In this document: positions 689 through 50,453 of the stretch, in pieces | Layout of the letters: every line of letters starts with the position of its first letter | Position numbering within the stretch: position 1 is the first letter of the stretch | From: Cyanobacteria bacterium P01_D01_bin.156 | GTDB lineage: Bacteria; Cyanobacteriota; Cyanobacteriia; Phormidesmidales; Phormidesmidaceae | NCBI GenBank assembly: GCA_039024555.1 | Contig: JBCCQQ010000010.1 | Location: forward strand, 32,001-96,000 | Length of the DNA: 64,000 nt | Direction of reading: 5' to 3' | Translations under genes and position numbers: made by a program | The notes under the pieces: generated by a model | Databases searched by the model: none | What the model saw: only the letters and a program-made list of their open reading frames with translations | Told to the model about the DNA's origin: nothing

Positions 689-3520
689 ATGCCTGAAGTG
701 AAACGAAAGCACTTCCTAAAGGGTATACCTGCTGTCGCTACACTCTCAGTCTTAGTCGTTTTAGGTCTGAAAAATTTTGCTGTTGATTTTGACCAATATA
801 GAAGCTACAGTGCCCTAATTTCAGATCAGCTGGTCAATGAAGCCGATGTTCAACTAGCATTGCAAAACATTCGCTATACCATTTCTCAAAATAGTCAGTC
901 CCTCAACGTCGCTTTACTAGAAGCGGAAAAAGTTCAGCTTCAACTGACAGAGCAAATTCCTCCCTCTCTTTCAGACAGAAATAAAAATCGGCTACAAAAA
1001 CAGCTAGAGTTCAATGCTGAACTTCTAGAAGAAAAGCGTCAGCTCATTGAACAACTTGAAGGGCACCACGCCAAAGTAAGAACCGCCCTAGCTCAAGAGG
1101 CTAATTTATTAGAAGGGCTAGATGGTAATCTGCGGCTAGAAGTGGAAGCTTTGCTAGATGACTTATCTCTTTATGCAGTGACTAGTAATGAACAGCTGAT
1201 CCTTGACATTGACGTAAAACTCCAGCGCTTAGAGAACAGGCTCGGCATCAATACAGCAACCCAACAACGCATCAATCAGGCCACTCAAATTCTCCTAGAG
1301 AATAAGCCTGTGGCGGATCAGCTAGTCGATGAAGTATTTGATTTACCCCTAACTAATAATATTCGGGCTTTAGAAAAACAGTTTGCTGAGATTCAGCAAA
1401 CGACTCGAGGAAGAGTTGAACTATACCGTAGTTTAATCTACGCTCTATTATTTATCAGTTCGGGCGTTGTATCCTTTTGGGTTATCAGTCGTTTACGTCG
1501 CTCAAGCCAACATACCGTCAGAGTGTTAGAGAGTATCACGGATGCATTTATTGCTGTGGATCGTAAGTGGGCAATTACCTACGTAAACGCTCAGGCTGCT
1601 GATATCCTCAAGTGCGAGATTTCCGGACTATTAGGACAAAGTTTTCTGCAAGTATTACCCGAATCTTTGGGCAAGCGGTTTACTGGGTACTACCGTGATG
1701 CTGTCATTAAAAAATTGAGAGTAGTTAGCTTTGAAACTTACTATAAGCCTACCCAACGCTGGTTAATGGTAAGAGGTTACCCTAGTCGAGATGGGCTATC
1801 TATTTTCTTGCAAGACTTTACTGAACGCAAACAAGCTGAGGAAAAGCTATTAGAACTGAATCGTGACCTTGATAATCGGGTCAAAGACCGTACAGCCCAG
1901 TTGGCCAATGCGATGGAGGAGGCAGAATCAGCCCGTGTAAAAGCTGAAGATGCCAATCGCTCCAAGAGTGAATTTCTCGCCAATATGAGCCATGAGTTAC
2001 GGACGCCTTTGAATGCCATTATCGGCTACAGCGAAATGCTGGAAGAAGATATCTATAGCATTGGTGAAGATGAATTTGTTCCTGATCTACAGAAAATTCA
2101 AGGGGCTGGCAAACACCTATTGGGGCTGATTAATTCAGTGTTAGACCTCTCTAAAATTGAGGCTGGTCGCATGGAACTCTTTGTGGAAGAGATCCATGTA
2201 CAAACCCTGATTAAAGAAATCATGGGAACTATTCAGCCACTGGTACAGAAAAATTACAATCAGCTGTTTGTGTCCTGCCCCGATGACATTGGTACCATGT
2301 ACGCTGACCAGGTAAAGCTACGGCAAAGCTTGATTAACCTTCTCAGTAATGCTTGTAAATTTACAGAGAATGGCAAAATCACCCTAACAGTTAGCCCAAC
2401 TAGCATTAATCACCAGACAGGTACACAGGAAAATGGTGTGCAGTTTATGGTGACAGATACGGGTATTGGTATGACTCCAGAGCAAATGAGTAAAGTATTT
2501 CAAGCATTTACTCAGGCCGATACATCAACTACCCGTAAGTATGGCGGTACTGGATTAGGGCTGACTATCACCAAACAATTTATTTCCATGATGGGTGGAG
2601 ATGTCTTGGTGGATAGTACCTACGGTGAGGGAACGACATTCACACTGATGCTCCCGAGAACAGTGGATGCAGAGAATTTATCAGAGGAAACATTCTTTGC
2701 GCCTCCCATACCGCGTACTGAACGGGAAACTGTTTCAGCCCTTTATGAACTATCTGAACAAACATCTGAAAAAACTATACTGCTTGTGGTTGATGAGCCG
2801 CAGACTCAAGAAAATTTGAAGAACTGGTTAGCTGACGAGGGCTATACAGCTATTTTTCCCGTGGATAGACAACAAGCCCTTGCCTATGTCGATGAGCTAC
2901 TACCGGATGTTATTCTGCTCGACGGCTTGCTCCCACGGCAGGATAGGGAATTTCTTTTAGAAGAAATCAGGGCTAGAACAGATTTGACCCAGGTACCTAT
3001 TATTTGCCTATCAGCTCCCGATGAATATGCTAATACTTATCAGCTAGGTGTCACCGAGTATGTCTCTAGGCCCCTGCAACCTACTAGTTTACTCAACACC
3101 TTAGAAAAGTATTTTCCAGAGTCTCCAGGACCTAAAATTTTAGTTGTTGAAGATGACTCGGATGCACGGGAAATCATGGGTCGATTATTACGCCAGTACG
3201 ACTGGACAATAGCGTTAGCTGCGAATGGACTACAGGCCCTTGACTATCTTCAAAAAACTGTCCCGGATCTGATTATTGTTGATTTAATGATGCCGGACAT
3301 GGATGGCTTTGAGCTAGTTAAGCGTCTGCGCCAGTCAACTCAGTGGGGAAGTATTCCAATTATCGTTATTTCAGCTAAAACGTTAACCGCTAGAGAACAA
3401 AAGCAATTAGAAGGTGTGGTCCGGATCTATCAAAAAGCAAACTTTAATCGCCAAGAGCTATTGAATGATGTCAAACGGATTGTATCTGCCAGAGCTAATA
3501 GTACATCAATGGCAAGTTGA
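689..3520 (+). CDS. Membrane hybrid histidine kinase (periplasmic DAHL-like sensor, PAS, HisKA, HATPase, two REC domains, the first atypical)
   Basis: H-box [17 protein letters not shown]-box [11 protein letters not shown]-boxes DTGIGM and GGTGLGL, two TM segments, PAS, C-terminal [15 protein letters not shown] track opens at 596 (TTG); ATG 689 is preferred because it aligns with the paralog start. Confidence 0.9.
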
Positions 3521-38138: not shown

Positions 38139-39398
38139 CTAGTCCATCACTCTGGGGGTATAGTTCACCCAAGGGGCATTAAGCGCTAGGGCCACATTCA
38201 TGTATTCAAAAGATTCCACGAGCCACCCTACTCGATCGAGGGTACATGACTCCTGAATGTGAAACAAAATACCAAAGCGATCTTCAAACCACGAGCGAAT
38301 CGTACGTCTAAATAAGACAAGCTTTAACAAAACAGCGGTTACAACTTTGGCCCCAACGGTTTCAACCAACCGCTTAAAATGCGCCATTTCAGGTCGCTCT
38401 ATGGTGTTGCTTACCAGTAGCTTGAGCAACCGAGTACACATTTGAGTAATGGAAATATCTGTAAGGGGAGTTGTTGTTTGCCCCGCAGAACTCACCAGAA
38501 CCTCCTTGACCAGTTTACTAAACCGGTTGTTCTGATAGCGCTCGTCCACATGCACCAGGGGTTCCATAACGTACTTGTAAAACGGCTCCACAAAGTCTCC
38601 CGTGGTTCGAAACTGAGTTACCCCACCTTCAAAAATCTGGGCTTGGTGCCGATAGCCATTCCGCCGCTGAGGGTGATACAACCCAATCGCTTCTCGCAGT
38701 TTTCTATGCTCTAACCGGGAGGGGTTAACGGCTTGGTCAAGATTGCCTTGACGCTGGGCTTGCCAGTAATGAGTCAGCTGTTGATTCAGCTGCTGAGCCT
38801 TTTTCTGACGCTGCAGCTGAATACTTTCACGCTGGCGCACGGGAATATCGCGGGTCGCTGCTACAGACTCATAGATAAAGAAGTAATCCTTAAAGCAATC
38901 ACCAAAGGTAACGACTTTCTCCTCTACCTCGTCATTTAAAAGACGCATCTGACGCTGTAGCGGGACATACAAATGCTCACTATTTGCATAGTCCGCCATA
39001 GCCTTGACCAACTGCTTGACCTGACGCCCGGTGGGCTGGCGCTCTGGCAGATGAGTGGCTCGTTCTACTAAAAATCTGAGGTCTGCGTGGCGGTGAGCCT
39101 CCATACGCCAGGGATTACCAATGGTGTAGAAGCATCGGTTAATCACATAGGGCAAAATTTTGTCTGCCTCTGGCGAATCCAGAATATTCATCAGTGCATT
39201 ACGCACAGATCTGGGATCAAATTCGGTAAATTCAAACTCTGTACAGCTGACCGTACCCTGGAAGAAAAGACTGTAAAACGCATCAGTAGCAAGTTTTGAA
39301 TCTTTTAATCGGGATAGACAGCGAACGTAGCTATACACCTCACGTTCGGCCCGAGTTACTGGGCGATTTGCAAAAAATTCTCCGGCGTTAGAGTACAT
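38139..39398 (-). CDS. Conserved cyanobacterial hypothetical protein
   Basis: 419-aa ORF; INRCFY.IGNPW, LLKLVL, RFGILF, WLVESFE..NVAL. Confidence 0.7.
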   Translation of the reverse strand: MYSNAGEFFANRPVTRAEREVYSYVRCLSRLKDSKLATDAFYSLFFQGTVSCTEFEFTEFDPRSVRNALMNILDSPEADKILPYVINRCFYTIGNPWRMEAHRHADLRFLVERATHLPERQPTGRQVKQLVKAMADYANSEHLYVPLQRQMRLLNDEVEEKVVTFGDCFKDYFFIYESVAATRDIPVRQRESIQLQRQKKAQQLNQQLTHYWQAQRQGNLDQAVNPSRLEHRKLREAIGLYHPQRRNGYRHQAQIFEGGVTQFRTTGDFVEPFYKYVMEPLVHVDERYQNNRFSKLVKEVLVSSAGQTTTPLTDISITQMCTRLLKLLVSNTIERPEMAHFKRLVETVGAKVVTAVLLKLVLFRRTIRSWFEDRFGILFHIQESCTLDRVGWLVESFEYMNVALALNAPWVNYTPRVMD

Positions 39399-39546: not shown

Positions 39547-42288
39547 TTACTTAATAGTGCCTCCTAATCGCTGTATAGAGAGGAGTTCATCGTTTGAAAA
39601 CCCCTGATTGTGGTAAAAAATGTAGCCTCTGTATTGATCCAGATCACTGACGGTCTCCCACACCCTCAAACACTGCTGATGTTCAAGGTCCCAAAGGCTC
39701 ACTGTGTGAGTGTTTTGGCACAGTAACCACTGGCCATCATTGCTAATGGAGAGAGCATAGGGAAGAGTCGGTAGCACGACACTTTTTTCCGAGACGGGCA
39801 ACCGGTGGTGCCATATATCTACCCTGTGATCTACGTCACACAGTGCTAAATATAAACCGTTTTCACTAAAAGCGGCTTTATGGGGTTGGCAGGCGACCTC
39901 TAACTGTTCGATATGAGGGGCCATAGAGTCTTCGGGTGAGGTCTGTTCAATGGGGGTAAATGAGCGTACGACTACCTCAGGATTCGAAGTTTGATAGTCA
40001 TCATTGACCACCGCTTCAACCACCTGTAGCTCAACATCGTTCCAGCCAAAGGCAAGAAAATGCCCGTAAGGATTTAGAGGCAGGGTCGCTTTTTGAGCCG
40101 TGTAGCTGTCGGCTCTAAGATTTCGATGCCAGATCCGAATTAGATTATTGTGGTCGTGTCCGGCTAGCACCTTACCATCAGGGCTAAATGCCAGGTGCCT
40201 GACAATGTTGGTGAGTTCGGGTAAGGGCGTACCTGCAGTGTCTTCCCACATGAGGTCCCAGAGATAAACCTGCCCACTGCTCACCCCGGCTGCAATTAAA
40301 TTGCTGTCTGCTCTTAGACTAGTGCTACAAATAGCTGCCTCACTGGAGAGGTTATCGTAGGCTTGTTCGTTAACAGTTAAATTATCCCAAATGTGGAGAG
40401 TCTGGTCTCCTAGCGTTACCACTAACCGATTATCCTGAGTGATGGCGATATCGTTGATGGGGACTCCTAAATCTTGACACCATTCTAGGGTGAACCGTTG
40501 TTGAGTCTGCTGATAAACTTGCAGCCAACCTTGTTCATCGCCAATGGCGACAACGTTCCCTTGGGGATGCAAGGCTGAGACGGTCGTGCCCTGTAATCCT
40601 GTCATTAAGGCGGTGTTGTTGAGCTGACAGTCGCGAAAAGTATATGGCTGTAGCTGGGGACTACTTAAATTTACGTGCCACAGTGTTAATCCTGCCCAGA
40701 TGTCTTCTGGCAGCTTGAGGTTGAGGTGGTTGGCTAAGTTCAGCAGGTTGCCAGCGGCACAGCTTTGGGGCTGTTTTGGAAATATGATCAGTTGACGTAA
40801 CAGGCGATTAATTTTCTCCCCTAGGGCATTCGCCAAATGGGTTTGTTGAAGAGCGTTAGCTACAGGCTCTAGAAGATACTGTTTAAGTTCTCGTTGAGAG
40901 TCAGTGGGGGCATTGGGGATAATAAAGGGATATCTGTGAAACAGCGTTAGCTCTTCGCTGGTCAGCTCTTGTAAAAAGATGGTTTGTAGTTTCTCTAGTA
41001 GATATAGACGAAAATAGCCTGTATTGAGCTGACACAACCCTTCTTTTTCGGAATAAAACTCCAGAAAATGTCGCCGGTGCAGTTTACCCCAAGCTTGCAT
41101 GAGCTGGGGCTGGGTAAATGGCAGTATTAGGGGCCATTCTCTTATTTGAGTCCAAGAAAGGGGACGAAAGACTAGCCAATATAATAGCTCCTGTTCAGTC
41201 TCTGAGTGAGCTGCAAATATCTGTTCAAAATAGCTGGTTATGCTAGGCGACAGGGGTAAAAGATTCGTGATAAATTGCTCAATCTGATTGGCGTAGAAAG
41301 ACTTTAAGGTTTCCACACTCTTATGTATAAGGCTAGGGTTTCCACCGCATAGTGCATGTAGCTTTTCCCAAGCAGCTGCTTGTTGAGCTAGGGAAGACTC
41401 TAAATAGGGATAAAATTTAATTAACAGTGCCTTTGTGTCAGCAAATGAAAGACCGGTTACGGTTTCAATGGGAATTTGTTGGTCAAGATTGGTGGGTTGA
41501 ACGGCGGTTATCCATAGCACACAGCTTTTGGTGCTGACTGTTGTTGTAATCTCTCGAAGAAATGTTTGATAGTCAGGGTCGTCAAGGAAACGCTCGCCCT
41601 GTTCAATCAGAATCAGGCATGGATGCTGGTTGAGAGTTTGAATCACCTGTTGACGACTTTGCTCTAGATTAGGGCTGGATGTTATGTCATTGTCTGGGGG
41701 AGCAAGTTTCTGATGCCAGGTGAGCCAACTGGGGGATTCGTAAAATGAATGGCGAATTATCTTGGAAAATAGTTTGTTGAGCTCTGGCTCTAGGGTTTGT
41801 AGTAAGTGACTTTTCCCAATGCCGCTGCCCCCTGTCAGTACAACCAGGGGACTACTGCGATCGCAAAGGGTATCTAGCAGCTGCGATCGCACTCCCGACT
41901 CTATTTCCACCGCTGATCTAACAGGTGTAGCATCCCCCTCAGGTGTGGCTATCAAAGAAAAAGAAGAGGAAGCGATCCCTTGGGAGAGCTGTCTGTAGTC
42001 TCTGTAACGGCGCTCGGCGATTTCTTTAAATTTAGGTTTAGTGACCTTATCTTCTTCTGGCCATACTTTACCTAAAAATCTCCATAGCTTAAATCCAATT
42101 TCTCGGTGTAGAGTCTTTGGCGAATAAACTATGCTAGATTGAGCCATGCGTCTAGCCATTTCGCTGTAGGACAATCCTTCCCAAGTCCAGCGCAGAATGG
42201 CCTGCTCGGCATCCGTTAACGGACGTTCCCCATAGGATTGCACACAGTCATTGACATAGGCTAAGACATCCTCAAAGTCGAACTCCAT
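39547..42288 (-). CDS. wHTH - STAND (NB-ARC-like) NTPase - divergent WD40 protein
   Basis: N-terminal LTDAEQAILRWTWEGLSYSEMA...GFKLW, Walker A GGSGIGKS, GGNP, AAGNLLNL, degenerate WD repeats. ATG 42288 is preferred over 42309. Confidence 0.82.
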   Translation of the reverse strand: MEFDFEDVLAYVNDCVQSYGERPLTDAEQAILRWTWEGLSYSEMARRMAQSSIVYSPKTLHREIGFKLWRFLGKVWPEEDKVTKPKFKEIAERRYRDYRQLSQGIASSSFSLIATPEGDATPVRSAVEIESGVRSQLLDTLCDRSSPLVVLTGGSGIGKSHLLQTLEPELNKLFSKIIRHSFYESPSWLTWHQKLAPPDNDITSSPNLEQSRQQVIQTLNQHPCLILIEQGERFLDDPDYQTFLREITTTVSTKSCVLWITAVQPTNLDQQIPIETVTGLSFADTKALLIKFYPYLESSLAQQAAAWEKLHALCGGNPSLIHKSVETLKSFYANQIEQFITNLLPLSPSITSYFEQIFAAHSETEQELLYWLVFRPLSWTQIREWPLILPFTQPQLMQAWGKLHRRHFLEFYSEKEGLCQLNTGYFRLYLLEKLQTIFLQELTSEELTLFHRYPFIIPNAPTDSQRELKQYLLEPVANALQQTHLANALGEKINRLLRQLIIFPKQPQSCAAGNLLNLANHLNLKLPEDIWAGLTLWHVNLSSPQLQPYTFRDCQLNNTALMTGLQGTTVSALHPQGNVVAIGDEQGWLQVYQQTQQRFTLEWCQDLGVPINDIAITQDNRLVVTLGDQTLHIWDNLTVNEQAYDNLSSEAAICSTSLRADSNLIAAGVSSGQVYLWDLMWEDTAGTPLPELTNIVRHLAFSPDGKVLAGHDHNNLIRIWHRNLRADSYTAQKATLPLNPYGHFLAFGWNDVELQVVEAVVNDDYQTSNPEVVVRSFTPIEQTSPEDSMAPHIEQLEVACQPHKAAFSENGLYLALCDVDHRVDIWHHRLPVSEKSVVLPTLPYALSISNDGQWLLCQNTHTVSLWDLEHQQCLRVWETVSDLDQYRGYIFYHNQGFSNDELLSIQRLGGTIK

Positions 42289-42337
42289 AGATTCACGGTA
42301 AACGCACACAACCCTTACATATTGAGGAGCTTACCGT

Positions 42338-42536
42338 AAGTCATATGACTTTTTTGTGACTATATGACTTTTTTTATGACTTCTTTAACCTCTCTAGGTC
42401 CTGACTTTTTATAAAAGTCAGTTGATGGTCAATGACTTTTTATGACTTATGGGTTTGAGAAAATCTCAAATCCATGACTCAGACAGATGACTTTAAGCGG
42501 ACTAATCAGACTTTTCCCTTGTCATCATGTAGTCAT
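42338..42536. promoter_or_regulatory. Array of TGACTT boxes in a divergent promoter
   Basis: Nine exact TGACTT (7 on +, 2 on -) in 42338-42493 plus variants, including two palindromic pairs. Confidence 0.7.
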
Positions 42537-42590
42537 CGAGCTTAACGCTTTGATGCATGTAGCACATTTATAAATCAGGGAAATCAACCC

Positions 42591-42764
42591 ATGGCTGAAA
42601 TGTTTATCGGTTTAGGTCTAAGCGGTTTGCTAATCGTGATGTTTGGCAAGTCTCCTAGCAAGTCCAAACCAAAGCCTGACAATAAGGCAACACTGACTCT
42701 GGTTCTCAACGGCCAAGACTACACGGTTAAGGAAGTCAAGGGTGCCAGTTTTGAACAGCATTGA
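42591..42764 (+). CDS. Small single-TM protein (57 aa), absent from the ORF track
   Basis: MAEMFIGLGLSGLLIVMFGKSPSKSKPKPDNKATLTLVLNGQDYTVKEVKGASFEQH*; purine-rich AGGGA upstream; hydrophobic N-terminus followed by Lys-rich segment. Confidence 0.6.
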   Translation: MAEMFIGLGLSGLLIVMFGKSPSKSKPKPDNKATLTLVLNGQDYTVKEVKGASFEQH

Positions 42765-42844
42765 TAACAACGGCTGCTGCAAAACTTCTAGGAAATATCC
42801 ATAGGAACAGCAGCTACCCACACCCCATTAGGAGGACACAAACT

Positions 42845-43171
42845 ATGTCTATCCGCTCGTACTTAGCATCTATTTTCTACGTTACGCCTTCCCCGATGCC
42901 CCAGGCCCTGAGCTTTATGGAAGCCCATGGCAGAGTAATCGAACCCATCAAACCTAATGCCACTGGTCGTGTAAATCTGCAAGGTGTTTCTTGGCTGGCG
43001 CGCTGTCCCGACACGCTACTCCATCCCTTACCGGTCGATACCCCCATTCAAGTCGTTGATCGAGTGGGCCTAACCTTACTAGTGAGACCCATCGCAACAA
43101 CAGCAGCCATCTGCGGAGAACCGCGTCATACCGCTCTTCGCTCGGCAGCTGTGGATAACAGTGCCGCATAG
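42845..43171 (+). CDS. NfeD-like OB-fold protein
   Basis: GRVIEPI..GRVNLQGVSWLARC...VVDRVGLTLLV; AGGAGG RBS before ATG 42845. Confidence 0.8.
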   Translation: MSIRSYLASIFYVTPSPMPQALSFMEAHGRVIEPIKPNATGRVNLQGVSWLARCPDTLLHPLPVDTPIQVVDRVGLTLLVRPIATTAAICGEPRHTALRSAAVDNSAA

Positions 43172-43178
43172 CAATGCT

Positions 43179-43317
43179 GGAGTATCAACATAAAAACGGC
43201 ATGATTTTCCCAAGGAATTTGGAATTCGGAGTTAGGAATCTGGAATGCTCACCCTTTCCGAATTCTGACTTCCGAATTCATTCCTCGCCGAAGTTTTCTG
43301 GATTAAATTGATACTCC
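43179..43317. repeat. 139-bp inverted-repeat element with an internal heptamer hairpin
   Basis: GGAGTATCAA...TTGATACTCC ends; internal GGAATTT/GGAATTC/GGAGTTA versus TTCCGAA repeats. Confidence 0.6.
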
Positions 43318-43368
43318 GATACCGCCCTAATTCACCTGACAAACCATATCGTTCTCTCGGAGATTCCT

Positions 43369-43599
43369 ATGCGTAGAAGTCATCATTACTCACGGTTTTA
43401 CTACGTTCTTGGCAAACTATTGCGTGGCTTTTTTATTCTGGCGTACGGCTTTTTGATTCTTAGCCTTTTGCTCGTCATTGCCATGGGGTTTGAATCCGCT
43501 TGGGCATTTTTAACCACCCTAGGGCCATGGATATTCAAACTTGGCCTTACCCTTGGCTGTGGTGTTGCTATTCTGGCGCTGATTGAATCCTTACCTTAA
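43369..43599 (+). CDS. Small two-TM membrane protein
   Basis: 76 aa, two hydrophobic segments, GGAG RBS. Confidence 0.65.
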   Translation: MRRSHHYSRFYYVLGKLLRGFFILAYGFLILSLLLVIAMGFESAWAFLTTLGPWIFKLGLTLGCGVAILALIESLP

Positions 43600-43797
43600 T
43601 GCGCGTCCGCTTTTGATTACCCATCATGATTAGGGCGGTAGGCAAGGCCCACTTTCATGTCGCACTCGATGTTTATGCAGCATAATTTCGAATAACTTCG
43701 CCTTACTTCGCAGTGGTGGTTCTGGCTGCAGACACCTCATTGAGGTTTCCTAGATACCGTTGCCAATATAGAGGCAGCCGTGTCTTCTTAAGTGCAT

Positions 43798-45024
43798 ATG
43801 GTTTCTAGATTTTTACGTTACCTGGGGCGTTTTTTGCGCCGTTCTCGCACCATCAATAATGAACCACTCAATAAGGTGAGTCTGGTCGTCATTATTCTGG
43901 TGGATATTGTTATTTTGTCCAATGTGTTTATTGGCTTAAATGATATCGCCCAGTGGCCGATTTCCCCGGAAGCCGCTTACCCCTGCTACGCCGAGTGGAG
44001 TGACTACCGAGATAATCAGGCCGATGATAAGGATTTTGATTTGGTGCGTCGAGTCGCCAGTAGACAAGTTATAAACGTAACGTCTGCCTATAACCGAGGG
44101 GCTGTGGATCGACTCGGTGAGGTGAGCCCTGTTTGTTTAGAGTATGAACAGGTTCGCGATGGGGTTCGCCAGCCAGCCGCTGATGCTCTTTTGAAAACGC
44201 TAAACCAGAAAGAAGGCGAAATCACTGCCCTAGAATTATCGAATAGTACTATTCGCCAACAGTACGACTCTACACTCCTCGAAGAGATTGCTGGGCAGCC
44301 CCGCGAGCAGTCTATTAACCAGACCGGAGCAGCCGAGGCGAAGGCCACTCTGGCTGAAAATGATGCCAAAATTGAGACCCTAGAGGCTGAAATCTCAGAA
44401 TTAGAAACCAAGCTGGTTGAAATCCCTGAAAGTGCTGCATTTTTAGAATTTCTTGCTCAGGAGCCTACGTTTCAAACGGTTGAGCAAGCTTATGAGAAAG
44501 CCAGATTTTGGTACCCTACCATTCAGTTAATCTTTCAGGCATTGTTTTTGGTGCCGTTGATGGTGGTTACCCTAGCGGTGTATAAGCTGGCTCAGCGAAG
44601 ACGCTATGGTCTAGTGGCGCTGCTTAGCTGGCATCTGCTGGTGATTTTCTCCATTCCTCTCATTCTTAGAGTGTTTGAGTTTTTCCAGGCGGGTGTTATC
44701 TTTGCTGTTGTTTTTGATGTTGTTAGCGCGTTATTTGGCCAACTGCTGTTTTTGGTCAGCTACATCTATATTTTGTTGATTCCGTTGTTGGGTTTTGGGG
44801 TAATTAAGCTGGCCCAGCGGTTTGTGTTTAACCCTAAGTTACAGGCGGCGGGGCGGGTACAGAAGTCACGCTGCATCAAGTGTGCGAAAAAGATAAAGCT
44901 GCACGATACTCATTGTCCCCACTGTGGTTACCATCAGTATCGAGAATGTGGCCACTGCCATCAGCAGACGTACAAGTATTTGCCCTACTGTAGCCACTGT
45001 GGCACGTCTCAACCTGTTGGATAG
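43798..45024 (+). CDS. Membrane protein with coiled coil and C-terminal double zinc ribbon
   Basis: N-terminal TM, periplasmic coiled coil, several TMs, four CxxC motifs at the C-terminus. Confidence 0.75.
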   Translation: MVSRFLRYLGRFLRRSRTINNEPLNKVSLVVIILVDIVILSNVFIGLNDIAQWPISPEAAYPCYAEWSDYRDNQADDKDFDLVRRVASRQVINVTSAYNRGAVDRLGEVSPVCLEYEQVRDGVRQPAADALLKTLNQKEGEITALELSNSTIRQQYDSTLLEEIAGQPREQSINQTGAAEAKATLAENDAKIETLEAEISELETKLVEIPESAAFLEFLAQEPTFQTVEQAYEKARFWYPTIQLIFQALFLVPLMVVTLAVYKLAQRRRYGLVALLSWHLLVIFSIPLILRVFEFFQAGVIFAVVFDVVSALFGQLLFLVSYIYILLIPLLGFGVIKLAQRFVFNPKLQAAGRVQKSRCIKCAKKIKLHDTHCPHCGYHQYRECGHCHQQTYKYLPYCSHCGTSQPVG

Positions 45025-45401: not shown

Positions 45402-48400
45402 TTATTCAGTCATTTTGGGTGTTGGTAGATCTCTCGTCCCAGGATGCTTTTCTGTTGTCGCAGGTGTATCGGTAGGGTCATAACCGATGTCGCCTACAAA
45501 GCAAAAAGATAGGGCTAAGTGGAAGGTGTCGCGGTCAATTTCAAACCGCTCTCCTAAGATTCGAGTAATGTCACCTTCAAATCGCCGCCATTCCATGTGG
45601 GCGTAGAAATTGCTCTTAGCGGGTGGGTTGAGGCTTGTGTAGAATTCATTCCACTTTAGAGTCAGAGATGGATTGGGATCTAGGGTACTGACATGCTCAT
45701 CAAATCGAGCGTCGAGTTCTTGGAAAACGTCTCGCATGAGGCTGGGATAGCGACCGGATAGGGCTAGGAAAACAAGCACTACTTTTTTGCTTTCTTCTGT
45801 GGGTTCGCCCCGCTTGGACCAAATGACCTTGAGTACTTTGTAAATATTGGTTAGCCGTTTACCGGTGCGGGGGGTAATATCCACGTGGTTGCAGCATTCC
45901 ACTAGCAGGTCGAACTCGGCTTGATCAAATTCGGTTACGGCAATGATATTGCCCATGGATTGGCCTGATAGTTCTGATGGCGTTGGCTGCTGGGGCTCTT
46001 GTTGTGGTTCTGGTGGTGGCTCTTGGAACTTCTGTTCTGGTGATTGAGAGCCTATTTTTTGGTCCAGGAGTGGCTCGGGAGCTGATCCTGTTTGTTGTTC
46101 TTGATCCGAGTCTGCTACTTGTTCAAAGTCAGCTTCTAGGCGTTGTTCCAAGAATGGTTGTGGAGTCTGTTGGAGCTCAGACTCTGATGCTGTTATTTGC
46201 CTTTCTTCCTGGTCTAGTGTTTGTTCTTGTTTTTGTCTTGGGGAACGTTTAGGCTTGGCTTTTGGGGCTGATTCCTTAGGTTTACGCTGTTTGGGCGTTG
46301 GTGATGCTTTTGGTGTCTGGCTTTGCTTGGGTTGTGTCTCGTTGTCTGGTGCGATTTCAGTTTGTTCTGGATCCTTAACCTGTACTTGTTCGGCCAGGTA
46401 AGATTTTACATTTTTTTGGGAAATGGGGCGCATGCGGTAGGGGATCTGGATGATTTTTTCCAGATAGTCCACACCGGAGGGTACACCGCCCCGTTTGAGG
46501 ACGCCCTGATACACTTCTTCGAGGGCACGTGCAATGTAGCGATCGTCAATGGCTAGGACGACGATAAAGAGCTTGGTTTTGAGTAGGAGTTGAACAGCCT
46601 CTAGAACCTGCACCACCCGGTCGGGGGGGCAGCGGTCTAGGTCGTCGATGTAGACCACAACTCGGGCAGGGCCACGGGGAAAGAGCTTTTTCAGAGCTTC
46701 TGCGTTGTGGGGGCCGGGGGTGAGCTGCTGGGTAAGGTCGTAGAGGTCCTGCTGGATTTGTTTCATTAGGCCCAGATGCTGGCCATAGGCGTTGTCATCC
46801 AGGCGGGAATTGACAAAGTCTAATAGGGAAGGGGCATCGGCGATGATGCCAATGCGTTGGCGTTGTTCGTTGATTTGGAGTTTTAGTTTGGCGATGTCTT
46901 CAGCAATGGCGGTAGTATCACTCTGCTTTTCCGCCAGTAGGCTTTCCCGTTCGCTTTGGATGCGGGCCTGTTCTTTTTGGACGGCCTGAATGTAGTTCCA
47001 GACAATGGGCAGAATCGAAAGCAGCGCGGCGATCCAAGATTGGAGTGCTGTTGGTAAGCCCGTGGCGTTGAGCCAGGTTTGTATGGTTTGCCAAAGATAT
47101 TTGGCAAACTGAAGGATATCGGTGGGGGAGGGTAGGAAGGGAAATTTGTCGGGTTGGCGGAAGTAGACGAACCCAAAAGCCAGAAAGAAAAGAGTAACGA
47201 ATCCGGTCAGGCTTTGGAAAGCGGCTGGGATTTTAGCTATCGTTTGTCCTTTGGTAGTGAATTCTTCAATTTGTTCTTCGCTGTAGCGCTGGCGCAGCAC
47301 TGTATTCAGCAGGGGTTTCCAGATGGCTGCAAACTTTTCGCGGGAGAGTTTTTGATCTACTTCAAATTCGATTTTGCTGAGGGAGCGTTGCAGTTCCCGT
47401 TCTTTTGCCTGGAGGCTAGCTTCTGCTTTTGTTAGTTGGCGACGTTCTTGTTGGCGGATATCGCTGAGGGTATTCCACAGGTAGTTAGGCTCTTTCAGGT
47501 TTTTGAGTTGGGTTTGATCCAGTTTTTTATTGTGATCTGATTTTTCAAGTTCTTGAGTAAGAAATTTGGTTCGCTTGCTCTCGTCAAGGATATAGATAGA
47601 TTGCCAGATATTCCCACCCTCTCTGAGGATTTGGGCATATTGCTCTTGTTCTTGTGGTAACTTTTCAGCTGTTAGCAAGGTTATAAATTCAGAACTGAAT
47701 TTATCTGATTTTTCAGATTTGGGATCCCATTGTTGTGCTCGATTTCTTCGTCGTTTCGGGAAACCAACAAAAAAGAAAAATAGACTTAACTCAATAATGT
47801 TTTCTATCCAGAACTTTTCGTTATCCCATAGCTCGGGTGGGGCGTAGTATTGGCGAAATTGATTATATTCACCAAGTTTACGATTTCCTAGAATGTTGCA
47901 TACATTGTCGATTGCCGAATAAGTTGAATTTATAACCAGGGGAAATCTTGTTTCGAAGCCACTTTCTATCAGTTGGTGAATTGTGCTGACAGCAAGAGAG
48001 ATAATGCCAACTAAAATGCTGATAATACCTATGATACTGTGAGTCATAGGTTGATAAATGTTTAGATCTAGATTCTTCAAAAGAGTTGAACTAAAATAGA
48101 GCCATGGATATACAATTCGCTTTACAGGCTGATATATCCAAGTATCAAATCGTCGATCTGGCTGTTTTAAGTCTTTTTGAGAAGTTTGTTTTTTAAGCCA
48201 AAATCGATAGTGTTTTCTGAAGTTTCTTAACCTCTTCATTGTAGGCCAAGCAATCCTAAGTGAAAACCACTTTTGTCTATTTCGGTTTTGAGTGCGAGTT
48301 TTATTGCTGTGGTTATTTTTTTTGTCTGAATATTGATTCTGAATGAGAAATTCCCCTAGCTGTTGTTCCCAACTAATCTGGCGGTTGAGTTCGAAGAATA

Positions 48401-50453
48401 TTTTCTGCATAAGGCTAGCCCATAGGTTTTCCTTGGCATAGCTCCAAGCATCAAATTTAATTTGGTAAATATGCCCTACATAGGGAGAATGTCTACCTGA
48501 ATAAGGTCCCCAAACTTGAGGTGGTGTCAATGCTTTAGTGCGAATGGCATTGATTTGGGATTGAATAAGATGCATGGCAAAAGATTTACCACTGCCCCAA
48601 CTGCCCAAAAGGGCAACCGCTAGGGGCGGCTTCAAGAGCCGCAGCATCAACACTTGGGTCAGGGCATCTAACTCATCTTGGATAAATAAGGCATCTTCAC
48701 CTTCTGCAAGATCATTATTAAAACTTTGAGGAATGGAAATCCGTTTAGGATTGATAGGCCAAAGACGAATGGTTCTATCAGAACTGCTACTAGCAATAGT
48801 GTTGCCATCAGGGTTAAAGACAACAGACCAGACAGGATTCGAATGTCCTTGGAAAGGTTCACAAATGGAGTTGCCGTTTAAATCCCATATCCGAATAGTG
48901 TTGTCAGAGCTACCACTGATAATAGTGTTCCCATCGGGGCTAAAGGCAACAGATAAGACAGCTCTCGAATGTCCCTGAAAGGATTCACCGATAGGGTTAC
49001 CGTTCAAATCCCATAGTCGAATGGTGTTGTCATAACTGCCGCTGACAATGGTGTTTCCATCAGGGCTAAAGGCAACAGATAAGACGGTATTCGAATGTCC
49101 CTGAAAGGGTTCACCGATAAGGTTACCGTTCAAATCCCAGAGCCGAATAGTGTTATCCTGACTCCCACTAATGATGGGATAACTTAACCCTTTCGAGGTC
49201 GCTATACGAACGGGACCAAAGGCAACAGATAAGACAGCTCTCGAATGTCCCTGAAAGGGTTCACCGATAGGGTTACCGTTCAAATCCCAGAGCCGAATAG
49301 TGTTGTCATAACCGCCGCTGACAATGGTGTTTCCATCGGGGCTAAAGGCCACAGACATGACAGCATCCGAATGTCCGTGGAACGGCTCACTGGTAAGGTT
49401 ACCGTTCAAATCCCAGAGCCGAATAGTGTTGTCCTGACCGGCGCTGACAATGGTATTTCCATCGGGGCTGAAGGCCACGGACATGACAGCATCCGAATGC
49501 CCCTGGAACGGTTCTCGAATAGGATTTCCCTGCAAGTCCCACAGTCGAATAGTATGGTCAGCACTGGCACTAACAATTGTCTTTCCATCGGGGCTAAAGG
49601 CTGCGGACCAGGCAGTATTCGAATGTCCCTGGAGGGTCTTGCCGATGCGGTTTCCCTGCAAATCCCACAGTTGAATAGTTTTGTCCAAACTACCACTGGC
49701 TAATGTGTTGCCATCAGGGCTAAAAGCTACAGACCTAACATAATCCGAATGTCCTTCAAAAGGTTTTTCTATGAGATTGCCATGTAAGTCCCATAGTCGG
49801 ATAGTTTTGTCATCACTGCCACTAACAATAATTTTTTCATTTATAAAAGCTACAGTCCAGACGTCATCTAAATGTCCCTTGAAGGGGGTGTTGATTAAAT
49901 TGCCGTGTAAGTTCCACAGCCGAATAGTTCTGTCAGCGCTACTACTGGCTAATGTGTTGCCATCAGGGCTAAAGGCAACAGATAAAACGGTGTCCAAGTG
50001 CCCCTGAAATGGTTCACCAATAGGGTTACCATTCAAATCCCATAGTCGAATGGTGTTGTCATTGCTGCCACTAGCAATAGTTTTTCCATTAGGCCCAAAA
50101 GCTACAGACCAGACAGGAGCTGAATGACCCTGGAACGGTTCTCCAATAGGATTTCCCTGCAAGTCCCACAGTCGAATAGTATGGTCAGCACTACCGCTAA
50201 CAATTGTCTTGCCATCGGGACTGAAAGTCACTGAAAAGACAGACCTTGAATGTCCCTGAAACGGATTACCGATGGGATTACCCTGCAAATCCCACAGTCG
50301 AATGGTTTTGTCATCACTGCTACTGACAATGGATTGACCATCGGGGCTAAAAGCTACAGACCCAATAGTATCCGAATGTCCTTGGAAGGGAGCCCTGATG
50401 ACTACAGGACCATTTTTTTGCTTTCCCGGCTGCGCTGGTTGTGCTACATCCAT
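45402..50453 (-). CDS. WD40-repeat + KAP-family P-loop NTPase with TM segments
   Basis: 13 GH...WD repeats, Walker A GSWGSGKS, FDAWSY, Walker B YIDDLDRC, YLEKIIQIPY, TPR..KRL.N. Confidence 0.88.
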   Translation of the reverse strand: MDVAQPAQPGKQKNGPVVIRAPFQGHSDTIGSVAFSPDGQSIVSSSDDKTIRLWDLQGNPIGNPFQGHSRSVFSVTFSPDGKTIVSGSADHTIRLWDLQGNPIGEPFQGHSAPVWSVAFGPNGKTIASGSNDNTIRLWDLNGNPIGEPFQGHLDTVLSVAFSPDGNTLASSSADRTIRLWNLHGNLINTPFKGHLDDVWTVAFINEKIIVSGSDDKTIRLWDLHGNLIEKPFEGHSDYVRSVAFSPDGNTLASGSLDKTIQLWDLQGNRIGKTLQGHSNTAWSAAFSPDGKTIVSASADHTIRLWDLQGNPIREPFQGHSDAVMSVAFSPDGNTIVSAGQDNTIRLWDLNGNLTSEPFHGHSDAVMSVAFSPDGNTIVSGGYDNTIRLWDLNGNPIGEPFQGHSRAVLSVAFGPVRIATSKGLSYPIISGSQDNTIRLWDLNGNLIGEPFQGHSNTVLSVAFSPDGNTIVSGSYDNTIRLWDLNGNPIGESFQGHSRAVLSVAFSPDGNTIISGSSDNTIRIWDLNGNSICEPFQGHSNPVWSVVFNPDGNTIASSSSDRTIRLWPINPKRISIPQSFNNDLAEGEDALFIQDELDALTQVLMLRLLKPPLAVALLGSWGSGKSFAMHLIQSQINAIRTKALTPPQVWGPYSGRHSPYVGHIYQIKFDAWSYAKENLWASLMQKIFFELNRQISWEQQLGEFLIQNQYSDKKNNHSNKTRTQNRNRQKWFSLRIAWPTMKRLRNFRKHYRFWLKKQTSQKDLKQPDRRFDTWIYQPVKRIVYPWLYFSSTLLKNLDLNIYQPMTHSIIGIISILVGIISLAVSTIHQLIESGFETRFPLVINSTYSAIDNVCNILGNRKLGEYNQFRQYYAPPELWDNEKFWIENIIELSLFFFFVGFPKRRRNRAQQWDPKSEKSDKFSSEFITLLTAEKLPQEQEQYAQILREGGNIWQSIYILDESKRTKFLTQELEKSDHNKKLDQTQLKNLKEPNYLWNTLSDIRQQERRQLTKAEASLQAKERELQRSLSKIEFEVDQKLSREKFAAIWKPLLNTVLRQRYSEEQIEEFTTKGQTIAKIPAAFQSLTGFVTLFFLAFGFVYFRQPDKFPFLPSPTDILQFAKYLWQTIQTWLNATGLPTALQSWIAALLSILPIVWNYIQAVQKEQARIQSERESLLAEKQSDTTAIAEDIAKLKLQINEQRQRIGIIADAPSLLDFVNSRLDDNAYGQHLGLMKQIQQDLYDLTQQLTPGPHNAEALKKLFPRGPARVVVYIDDLDRCPPDRVVQVLEAVQLLLKTKLFIVVLAIDDRYIARALEEVYQGVLKRGGVPSGVDYLEKIIQIPYRMRPISQKNVKSYLAEQVQVKDPEQTEIAPDNETQPKQSQTPKASPTPKQRKPKESAPKAKPKRSPRQKQEQTLDQEERQITASESELQQTPQPFLEQRLEADFEQVADSDQEQQTGSAPEPLLDQKIGSQSPEQKFQEPPPEPQQEPQQPTPSELSGQSMGNIIAVTEFDQAEFDLLVECCNHVDITPRTGKRLTNIYKVLKVIWSKRGEPTEESKKVVLVFLALSGRYPSLMRDVFQELDARFDEHVSTLDPNPSLTLKWNEFYTSLNPPAKSNFYAHMEWRRFEGDITRILGERFEIDRDTFHLALSFCFVGDIGYDPTDTPATTEKHPGTRDLPTPKMTE

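Follow-up and report, generated by a model that had tools for sequence, protein, structure and literature searches.

The 302-bp gap between the start of a STAND ATPase gene (42288) and the first gene of a divergent small-gene cluster (42591) contains a dense array of TGACTT boxes, and this array is a real, conserved and locus-specific cis element beside the STAND gene. The best explanation, with a probability of roughly 0.6, is that the conserved array functions in cis as an operator within a divergent promoter region and that its putative binder is the N-terminal LuxR-type helix-turn-helix (HTH) of the adjacent STAND protein, i.e. by analogy with multi-box STAND activators, an oligomerisation-dependent operator of an HTH-NACHT-WD40 protein whose HTH would read the boxes. 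Positions throughout are those of the window, the whole 64-kb stretch of DNA that was analysed.

A dense box array between divergent genes

Nine exact TGACTT/AAGTCA hexamers lie within 156 bp (42338-42493), against an expectation of ~0.09 per 160 bp; across the genome the hexamer occurs 3695 times in 6,618,991 bp (0.56 per kb). There was no overall enrichment in the whole 64-kb window, with 38 copies seen and 36.9 expected, and nine of the 38 were inside the array. The possibility that such clusters are common genome-wide, raised in the preliminary description, was not borne out, as a genome-wide hexamer count identified the array as the single densest TGACTT cluster of the 6.6-Mb genome, followed by a coding repeat on contig C21 with five copies and then two loci with four. 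The copies on contig C120 belong to a CRISPR repeat that happens to include AAGTCA; this CRISPR array (C120:1-1000) has a ~35-nt repeat containing AAGTCATGAG and spacers of ~35-38 nt. A position-weight matrix built from the conserved boxes gave 9 matches and 134.7 bits at the array and at most 3 matches and 36 bits elsewhere in the genome. Clusters of at least six copies of any 6-mer per 160 bp were present at only 50 loci genome-wide, and the 14-bp palindrome at the left end of the array has a single occurrence in the genome. The unique strong cluster and the single palindrome fit a regulator that is local and dedicated, not global.

The individual boxes are located as originally described, with ATGACTT on the plus strand at 42345, 42364, 42376, 42432, 42442 and 42487 and on the minus strand at 42338, CTGACTT at 42401 (TGACTT at 42402, the preceding C at 42401) and reverse copies at 42338 and 42415. 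The perfect palindrome AAGTCATATGACTT at 42338-42351 (AAGTCA-TA-TGACTT, 7-2-7-like when the flanking T/A is counted) and the second palindrome CTGACTTTT-TAT-AAAAGTCAG at 42401-42421 are likewise present, as are the variants TGACTA (42356/7), TGACTC (42474/5), TGTCAT (42519-42525) and AGTCAT (42530/1), and the whole array sits in the gap between the STAND gene and the divergent small-gene cluster. Of the nine exact boxes, seven point the same way. Successive plus-strand boxes are spaced at 11, 8, 12, 25, 31, 10, 32 and 13 nt, so that the spacing rule first suggested (10-12 or ~31 nt) describes six of the eight intervals and fails for the other two.

Conservation among relatives

A DNA search with positions 42200-42800 against 21 other genomes of the genus and 19 more distant genomes recovered the orthologous region in 11 of the former and in none of the latter. 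Ten orthologous intergenic regions, from this genome and nine relatives, were aligned, and an array was present in all ten, in line with the earlier proposal that arrays should recur beside orthologous genes. The longest intergenic block with at least 90% identity is GTAAGTCATATGACTTTT (42336-42353), with the palindrome at its core, and the other conserved blocks are mostly boxes (ATGAC+TTTTT, AAAAGTCAG, TGAC+TTTTATG, TGAC and GACTTT). Five of the nine exact boxes were retained in at least eight of the nine relatives and two more retain their core, and overall six to seven boxes are kept per orthologous region.

At the palindrome, the right half is retained in 9/9 and the left half in 8/9 of the other species. 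Box 2 (ATGACTTTTTTT, 42364-42375, plus strand) lies ~20 nt, i.e. two helical turns, from the right half of the palindrome and keeps its TGAC in 9/9 relatives. Box 3 is a reverse box (AAAAGTCAG, 42413-42421, minus strand) in a block of at least 90% identity, its AAGTCA being present in 9/9 relatives, and it forms an inverted pair, 16-17 nt start to start, with box 4 (ATGACTTTTTATG, 42432-42444, plus strand), the TGACT of which is retained in 8/9. Boxes 5 (ATGACTC) and 6 (ATGACTTT) occupy 42474-42494 on the plus strand; the variant at 42475 retains TGAC and the box at 42488 retains GACTTT in 9/9 relatives, where box 6 reads C/A-GACTTT. The boxes at 42357, 42377, 42402 and 42443 are specific to the lineage of this genome, the corresponding plus-strand segments (42356-42362, a GTGACTA variant, 42376-42382, 42401-42409 and 42442-42448) being kept in 0-1 of the nine relatives, and relative G002 has its own additional tandem ATGACTTTTTAAT units. 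From these sequences, box number appears to drift via local duplication of box units.

The geometry of the conserved boxes is also largely fixed. In all ten regions, 57 nt separate the palindrome's centre from the aligned STAND start and box 2 is at +20 to +22 relative to the palindrome; the reverse/forward pair is at +71/+87 in 7/10, with insertions shifting the pair in the remaining three. Two species have no ATG at the aligned STAND start, and the probable start there is a TTG 9 nt further in, behind AAGGAG. The matched intergenic DNA is 69-79% identical between species, whereas the flanking STAND protein is 41-48% identical, and the conservation of boxes and DNA despite a diverged STAND protein indicates that the gap is under purifying selection centred on the boxes. 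Since the orthologous loci are related, their agreement represents conservation and not independent replication.

Co-occurrence with the STAND gene and second arrays

A search of 173 genomes of the family for the exact palindrome gave 12 carriers, namely this genome, ten bearers of a STAND orthologue and one with a chance match inside a glycosyltransferase gene. Within the genus, all but one of the 11 relatives with the STAND gene have the palindrome, and the ten genomes that lack this gene do not. Two relatives, G011 and G021, have extra, unlinked arrays, ordered as at the main locus (the palindrome, then a box at +21, then the reverse/forward pair), at L091 ~3005-3125 and L090 ~2900-3010, respectively, neither of them next to a STAND gene. 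The array in G021 is upstream of a gene for a serralysin-like metalloprotease, and the other is flanked on its two sides by an NfeD-like gene and by the gene for a 285-aa protein with no family match, which looks exported, judged from its N-terminus. No upstream array was found at six other places encoding homologues of the G021 metalloprotease. The unlinked second arrays imply a binder that acts in trans on a very small regulon, which in this genome would, from the distribution of arrays, be this locus alone.

Genes of the conserved module

The conserved module comprises genes for a 419-aa protein (p419), the STAND protein, a 57-aa protein, an NfeD-like protein and a 76-aa protein. The STAND gene (39547-42288, minus strand, 913 aa) encodes an HTH, a P-loop/nucleotide-binding oligomerisation domain (NOD; ~41413-41883) and a WD40 sensor (~39664-40698, approximately residues 531-875). 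The P-loop GGSGIGKS is visible, as in a STAND NOD, and the AAA_16 and NACHT Pfam matches are below their cut-offs (26.1 and 23.8 bits). Downstream of it on the same strand, and always co-located with it, is the p419 gene (38139-39398), the product of which is 57-68% identical in 6/6 orthologous loci and has 33 homologues. A confident all-helical model was predicted for p419 (pLDDT 89.8), for which no fold match was obtained: Foldseek gave TM of 0.2 at most, the best VIA-align row (Z 5.8) was generically helical, and the ESM Atlas returned nothing usable. Precomputed Pfam labels for p419 are PF27138 and PF27130, and there was no HTH or other DNA-binding signature in it by Pfam, NCBIfam or fold searches.

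On the plus strand, the first divergent gene encodes a 57-aa small membrane protein (42591-42764) with a conserved start region, detected by tblastn at 4/6 loci. It is followed by a gene for a protein with an NfeD-like C-terminal OB domain (42761-43171; Pfam PF01957, 6.6e-11), the relatives of which (3/6 loci) align from residue 23-29 onward, and for which the ATG at 42845 is the more likely start. The last conserved member of the cluster encodes a 76-aa membrane protein (43369-43599; 5/6 loci) that within the genus occurs only at STAND-array loci, and a 410-aa protein beyond the cluster was not conserved at the orthologous loci. NCBIfam models did not match the N-terminal domain of the STAND protein, the small proteins or p419. 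A STAND orthologue was present in 10 of the 21 genus genomes, and an eleventh copy is truncated at the end of its contig; the 152 other genomes of the order gave none. Together with the confinement of the 76-aa protein to these loci, this distribution indicates that the genes of the module occur together or not at all. There was neither a tRNA gene nor a composition break around it, and PADLOC reported nothing meaningful at the locus, only a weak HEAT-ARM match.

The putative promoter and leader region of the STAND gene (42289-42337, minus strand) contains the conserved elements CACACAA (42305-42311) and AGGAGT/ACTCCT (42325-42330). A scan for consensus sigma-70 promoters gave none in the gap of this genome and none in that of G002. 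The gap of G017 gave one 10/12 match (TTGAGA-17-AATAAT, with box 2 within the spacer), which is not conserved, and no promoter was therefore called. An Rfam scan of 41800-43800 found nothing in the intergenic gap and two sub-threshold matches elsewhere. In the minus-strand leader, an upstream ACUCC (42325-42330) is complementary to GGAGU at the start codon (42282-42286), and in two species the complement of the leader ACUCC is the Shine-Dalgarno sequence instead of the start codon. This pairing, which has almost no covariation, could be a start-site-masking hairpin.

The N-terminal domain of the STAND protein

The N-terminal domain (residues 1-108; 41965-42288, minus strand), hereafter the N-domain, is covered by no Pfam or NCBIfam model, and no other DNA-binding domain is recognisable in the conserved module. 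Pfam matches were weak (HTH_38 E 0.032, GerE 0.069, Sigma70_r4_2 0.22), the GerE match reaching 13.2 bits and so remaining under the gathering score of 23.5, and there was a weak match to SdiA. An AlphaFold2 model from a 41-row alignment (pLDDT 94.5) predicts five helices and no strand. The best Foldseek rows for this model were the DNA-binding domains of DosR, RcsB, FixJ and NarL (E 0.5-1, TM 0.56-0.61 by target length). With VIA-align, the NarL-DNA complex 1je8_A gave Z 6.8 at an rmsd of 2.4 over 64/66 residues and the DosR-DNA complex 1zlk_A gave Z 6.7 over 65/65 residues. NarL, DosR, ChrA, RcsB, DegU, VqmA, TraR and GerE scored Z 5.7-6.8 with the whole target domain covered, sigma region 4 scored lower, and nine of the top 12 rows were LuxR-type domains. 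The note supplied with VIA-align rates a Z of 6.8 as middling, and an unrelated helical protein nearly ties with this top score. The agreement of four methods (Pfam and SdiA weakly, Foldseek and VIA-align) points to a LuxR/GerE-type tetrahelical HTH, not a winged one, and the N-domain is predicted to be of this type on fold evidence that is moderate. The winged HTH of the preliminary description thus stands as regards an HTH at the N-terminus of the STAND protein and not as regards a wing.

The PDB titles of the matched LuxR-type structures describe binding to heptamer or inverted-repeat DNA sites. NarL follows a 7-2-7 rule, in which heptamer half-sites are arranged as an inverted pair with a 2-bp spacer, accompanied by extra heptamers in either orientation. 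The array at this locus resembles such a site layout, with an inverted heptamer pair separated by a 2-bp spacer and further heptamers in either orientation.

An exhaustive HMMER search, superseding a word-indexed homologue search with residues 1-135 that had found only three proteins, gave 111 cluster representatives that begin with this domain. Among the 67 longer N-domain proteins, NB-ARC was present in 38 and NACHT in 25. Of the 121 genomes sampled from the cyanobacterial class, 88 gave a match to the family profile, with more than 430 matches in all. In the STAND protein of this genome, conservation of the HTH (39-48%) does not exceed that of the remaining sequence (41-49%). The predicted recognition helix of this HTH is TLHREIGF, after a 5-residue insertion, where the orthologues have TLRGVYGY, with identical boxes; this divergence of the helix with unchanged boxes counts against tight helix-box coupling, as far as the helix can be predicted. 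A paralogue in G017 (contig C113, L034:1-1700) has ~190 aa of extra N-terminus with two tandem HTH copies and then NACHT, and no TGACTT array was found upstream of it.

Arrays beside other N-domain-STAND genes

At a distant orthologous locus, L082 (p419 41% identical), the sequence includes TGACTTTTT twice, TGACATTTT, a reverse TGACAAAAA and a GGACT..AGTCC pair; there is no palindrome, and the divergent gene differs. L082 and the orthologues have in common the helix signature x-x-T-[LMV]-R/H and TGAC[TA]TTTT boxes. At L082:6498-7097, a gene for an ECF sigma factor follows the STAND-p419 pair and an SRPBCC/polyketide-cyclase-like gene.

Two further lineages, the loci of which were picked without regard to arrays, have related boxes, and the recognition-helix signature differs per lineage. 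In the lineage with the predicted recognition helix Y[CL]TEGH[VI][KR]D (hereafter TEGH), AAGTCGG boxes are found on the sense strand of the gene in the upstream gap, spaced at 9-10/13/9 nt, at four loci in three genera (five boxes in G005 at L028:1241-1283, four in G180, four (+1) in G178 and three in G047; loci L117, L118 and L119 in addition to L028). A fifth TEGH-lineage locus (G175) has scattered AAGTCGG copies only, and four loci with other helix types have 0-1 AAGTCGG boxes. At L069 (G232, from a different cyanobacterial family), eight AAAAGTCAGG-type boxes with ~10-nt spacing lie directly upstream of the gene (~1364-1470), the related box there being AAGTCAGG. As the boxes of the window read AAAAAGTCAT on the STAND sense strand, all three arrays share an A-rich stretch and AGTC core in the same orientation, and differ in the bases that follow.

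There does not appear to be a wider trend of this kind. No clear array was present at 38 of 41 other loci of the domain family, and only L069 was comparable. The repeat upstream of the N-domain-STAND gene at L041 (G198, ~1360-1410) is an STRR-like tandem heptamer (CTTCTGA x5) and does not resemble an operator. In the 300 nt upstream of these 41 loci there were 27 copies of AAGTC, compared with 26.4 expected (rank 220/512), i.e. no enrichment, and no array accompanies the five further N-domain genes in this genome. A 6-mer over-representation test on 29 family-wide loci and seven same-genus paralogues flagged only L041, L028 and, weakly, L031; this test is too blunt for arrays of 3-4 boxes, as shuffles reach 4. 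An array accompanying the N-domain as a general rule is therefore not supported by the loci compared. The proposed covariation of motif and HTH accordingly holds for the orthologues (10/10 aligned) and for the two lineages with related, different boxes, and does not extend family-wide.

Comparison with characterised regulators

The HTH of MalT is C-terminal, and the MalT box is GGA[T/G]GA. The module described here is like MalT/LAL regulators in joining a STAND ATPase to a LuxR-type HTH and in having several short boxes in the putative target promoter region. It is unlike them in that the HTH is N-terminal (residues 1-108) where theirs is C-terminal, the NOD is NACHT/NB-ARC-like, the sensor is WD40 instead of a SUPR/TPR type, and the box is ATGACTT(T). 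According to one account of MalT, inducer-driven multimerisation leads to cooperative box binding and RNA polymerase recruitment (PMC4381067). The term MalT-like in the preliminary description is thus apt for a STAND ATPase with an HTH of MalT's DNA-binding class and a multi-box array; the HTH is at the opposite end, and the NACHT/NB-ARC-like ATPase and WD40 sensor indicate that the protein is not a member of the MalT family.

The SARP domain is an OmpR-type winged HTH with BTAD. The order of domains at this locus (DNA-binding domain, NOD, repeat sensor) is that of AfsR/SARP regulators, unlike which the N-domain is predicted to be all-helical and LuxR-type, there is no Trans_reg_C or BTAD among the Pfam matches, and the sensor is WD40 and not TPR. 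Published accounts describe the SARP-NOD-TPR order for AfsR (PMC10936776) and the binding of heptameric direct repeats by such regulators of Streptomyces (PMC5930380). The DNA-binding domains of NarL, DosR and GerE, the best structural matches to the model over the whole N-domain, are switched by phosphorylation or small ligands, whereas here the HTH is fused to a STAND ATPase. By this comparison, the protein would work like MalT/LAL and AfsR with a different domain order, NOD clade, sensor and box.

The tripartite arrangement (N-terminal output, NACHT, C-terminal repeats) is also that of bNACHT and prokaryotic NLR-like proteins, with the reservation that the NACHT match here is below the Pfam cut-off and that PADLOC gave only the weak HEAT-ARM match. 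Transcription-regulatory domains are listed among the predicted N-terminal output classes of bNACHT proteins (bioRxiv 10.1101/2022.07.19.500537), and an ECF-like HTH is noted as pointing to a transcriptional response (eLife 2021, PMC8195603). The accessible parts of this literature on predicted DNA-binding N-termini name no target DNA sites, and those of the literature on cyanobacterial TGACTT sites and LuxR-NACHT-WD40 proteins contain no such operator; supplements may list the architecture.

Proposed mechanism and alternative explanations

If the adjacent STAND protein is the binder, its resting, ADP-bound monomer would bind weakly through the HTH, or only as a dimer at the 7-2-7-like palindrome, a site that would overlap the possible -35 element of a STAND promoter (minus strand; ATGACT, 17-18 nt, TATGTA, placed by eye, the consensus scan giving no match). 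On meeting its ligand, the WD40 sensor would cause the NOD to exchange nucleotide and oligomerise, the clustered HTHs would cooperatively occupy the phased boxes and recruit RNA polymerase, and both the STAND-p419 operon and the divergent operon of small membrane proteins (57-aa, NfeD-like and 76-aa) would be switched on. The output is taken as activation because there is no consensus promoter in either direction; the geometry would suit autorepression at the palindrome equally well. A more specific version is tentative, namely that a ligand, possibly a phage or invader cue, causes the LuxR-HTH-NACHT-WD40 protein to polymerise on the phased heptamer array and so fires a private regulon. It is similarly speculative that this regulon comprises the NfeD-like and 57-/76-aa membrane proteins and, in relatives, the serralysin-like protease, and lineages of the N-domain might conceivably read different AAGTC-core boxes (AAGTCAT, AAGTCGG and AAGTCAGG) as part of the same scheme.

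The serious rival is a genuine operator with another binder, either p419 or a regulator encoded elsewhere, the N-domain then being e.g. an adaptor. This is rather unlikely, although several observations would suit it: p419, for which no fold could be assigned, is at every orthologous locus and at the distant L082, the second arrays in G011 and G021 are away from the STAND gene and imply action in trans, most N-domain-STAND genes have no array, and the recognition helix of this genome has diverged while the boxes have not. However, p419 has no HTH or other DNA-binding signature, arrays with related cores are found beside N-domain genes in the TEGH and L069 lineages, and the single strong target in this genome argues against a global regulator. 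Action at the RNA level, through 5' leader repeats that are bound by an RNA-binding protein or form regulatory hairpins, is very unlikely. The shared orientation of seven of the nine exact boxes, the potential of the CTGACTTTT/AAAAGTCAG arms to form a hairpin and the predicted pairing of the minus-strand leader ACUCC with GGAGU at the start codon would be expected of it, but conservation of the two reverse boxes is among the highest in the array (9/9 and 8/9), in keeping with recognition of double-stranded DNA, the hairpin at 42401-42421 is specific to this genome, there is no Rfam match, and the covariation term is only -0.28 kcal/mol, with one compensatory pair in 19.

There is still less to suggest iterons or a partition site of a plasmid or integrated element, a highly improbable origin given that no rep, par or integrase genes are present in the conserved module, that no replication initiator or partition gene is found among the neighbouring ORFs, that the module coincides with no tRNA gene or composition break, and that relatives carry the locus on contigs of 7.7 and 8.2 Mb. 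The resemblance lies in the irregular direct and inverted short repeats, AT-rich gap and small genes alongside, which have an iteron- or centromere-like look, and in the presence or absence of the module as a unit within the genus. That the array has no function and arose by local slippage or duplication within a T-rich spacer has an equally slim chance of being correct; box number does vary, and extra copies have arisen via tandem duplication in this genome and G002, but all ten loci retain the core boxes and the distances between them where the flanking protein is only ~45% identical, and the same box order appears again at unlinked loci. Binding by p419 or an unlinked factor is consequently the alternative that weighs most against binding by the STAND protein's own HTH, the RNA, iteron and slippage explanations each being unlikely.

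Significance for STAND regulators

STAND/NLR proteins usually signal via enzymes or death-fold adaptors, with transcriptional outputs known for MalT/LAL and AfsR, and in the literature consulted a transcriptional output of NACHT/NB-ARC-type proteins in multicellular bacteria is so far only predicted. The N-domain heads hundreds of cyanobacterial STAND proteins, and this locus offers a concrete candidate DNA target. Its boxes are defined, their geometry is fixed, natural variants exist and altered boxes occur in two sister lineages, which together make the idea of a ligand-gated transcription factor testable. If the N-domain does bind the array, the locus would also define what such a sensor switches on. 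If, more speculatively, each lineage reads its own AAGTC-core box, the boxes would provide a ready-made recognition code for a family present in 88/121 sampled cyanobacterial genomes.

Other features of the genome

Two features outside the module were also observed. At 45402-50453 (minus strand), 2.8 kb from the module and not conserved with it, is a gene for a 1683-aa protein made up nearly entirely of WD40 repeats (at least 13 Pfam stretches). Elsewhere in the genome, six TCCACA/TGTGGA copies within ~70 bp (contig C58:33881-33947) look like a DnaA-box cluster and are a candidate oriC.
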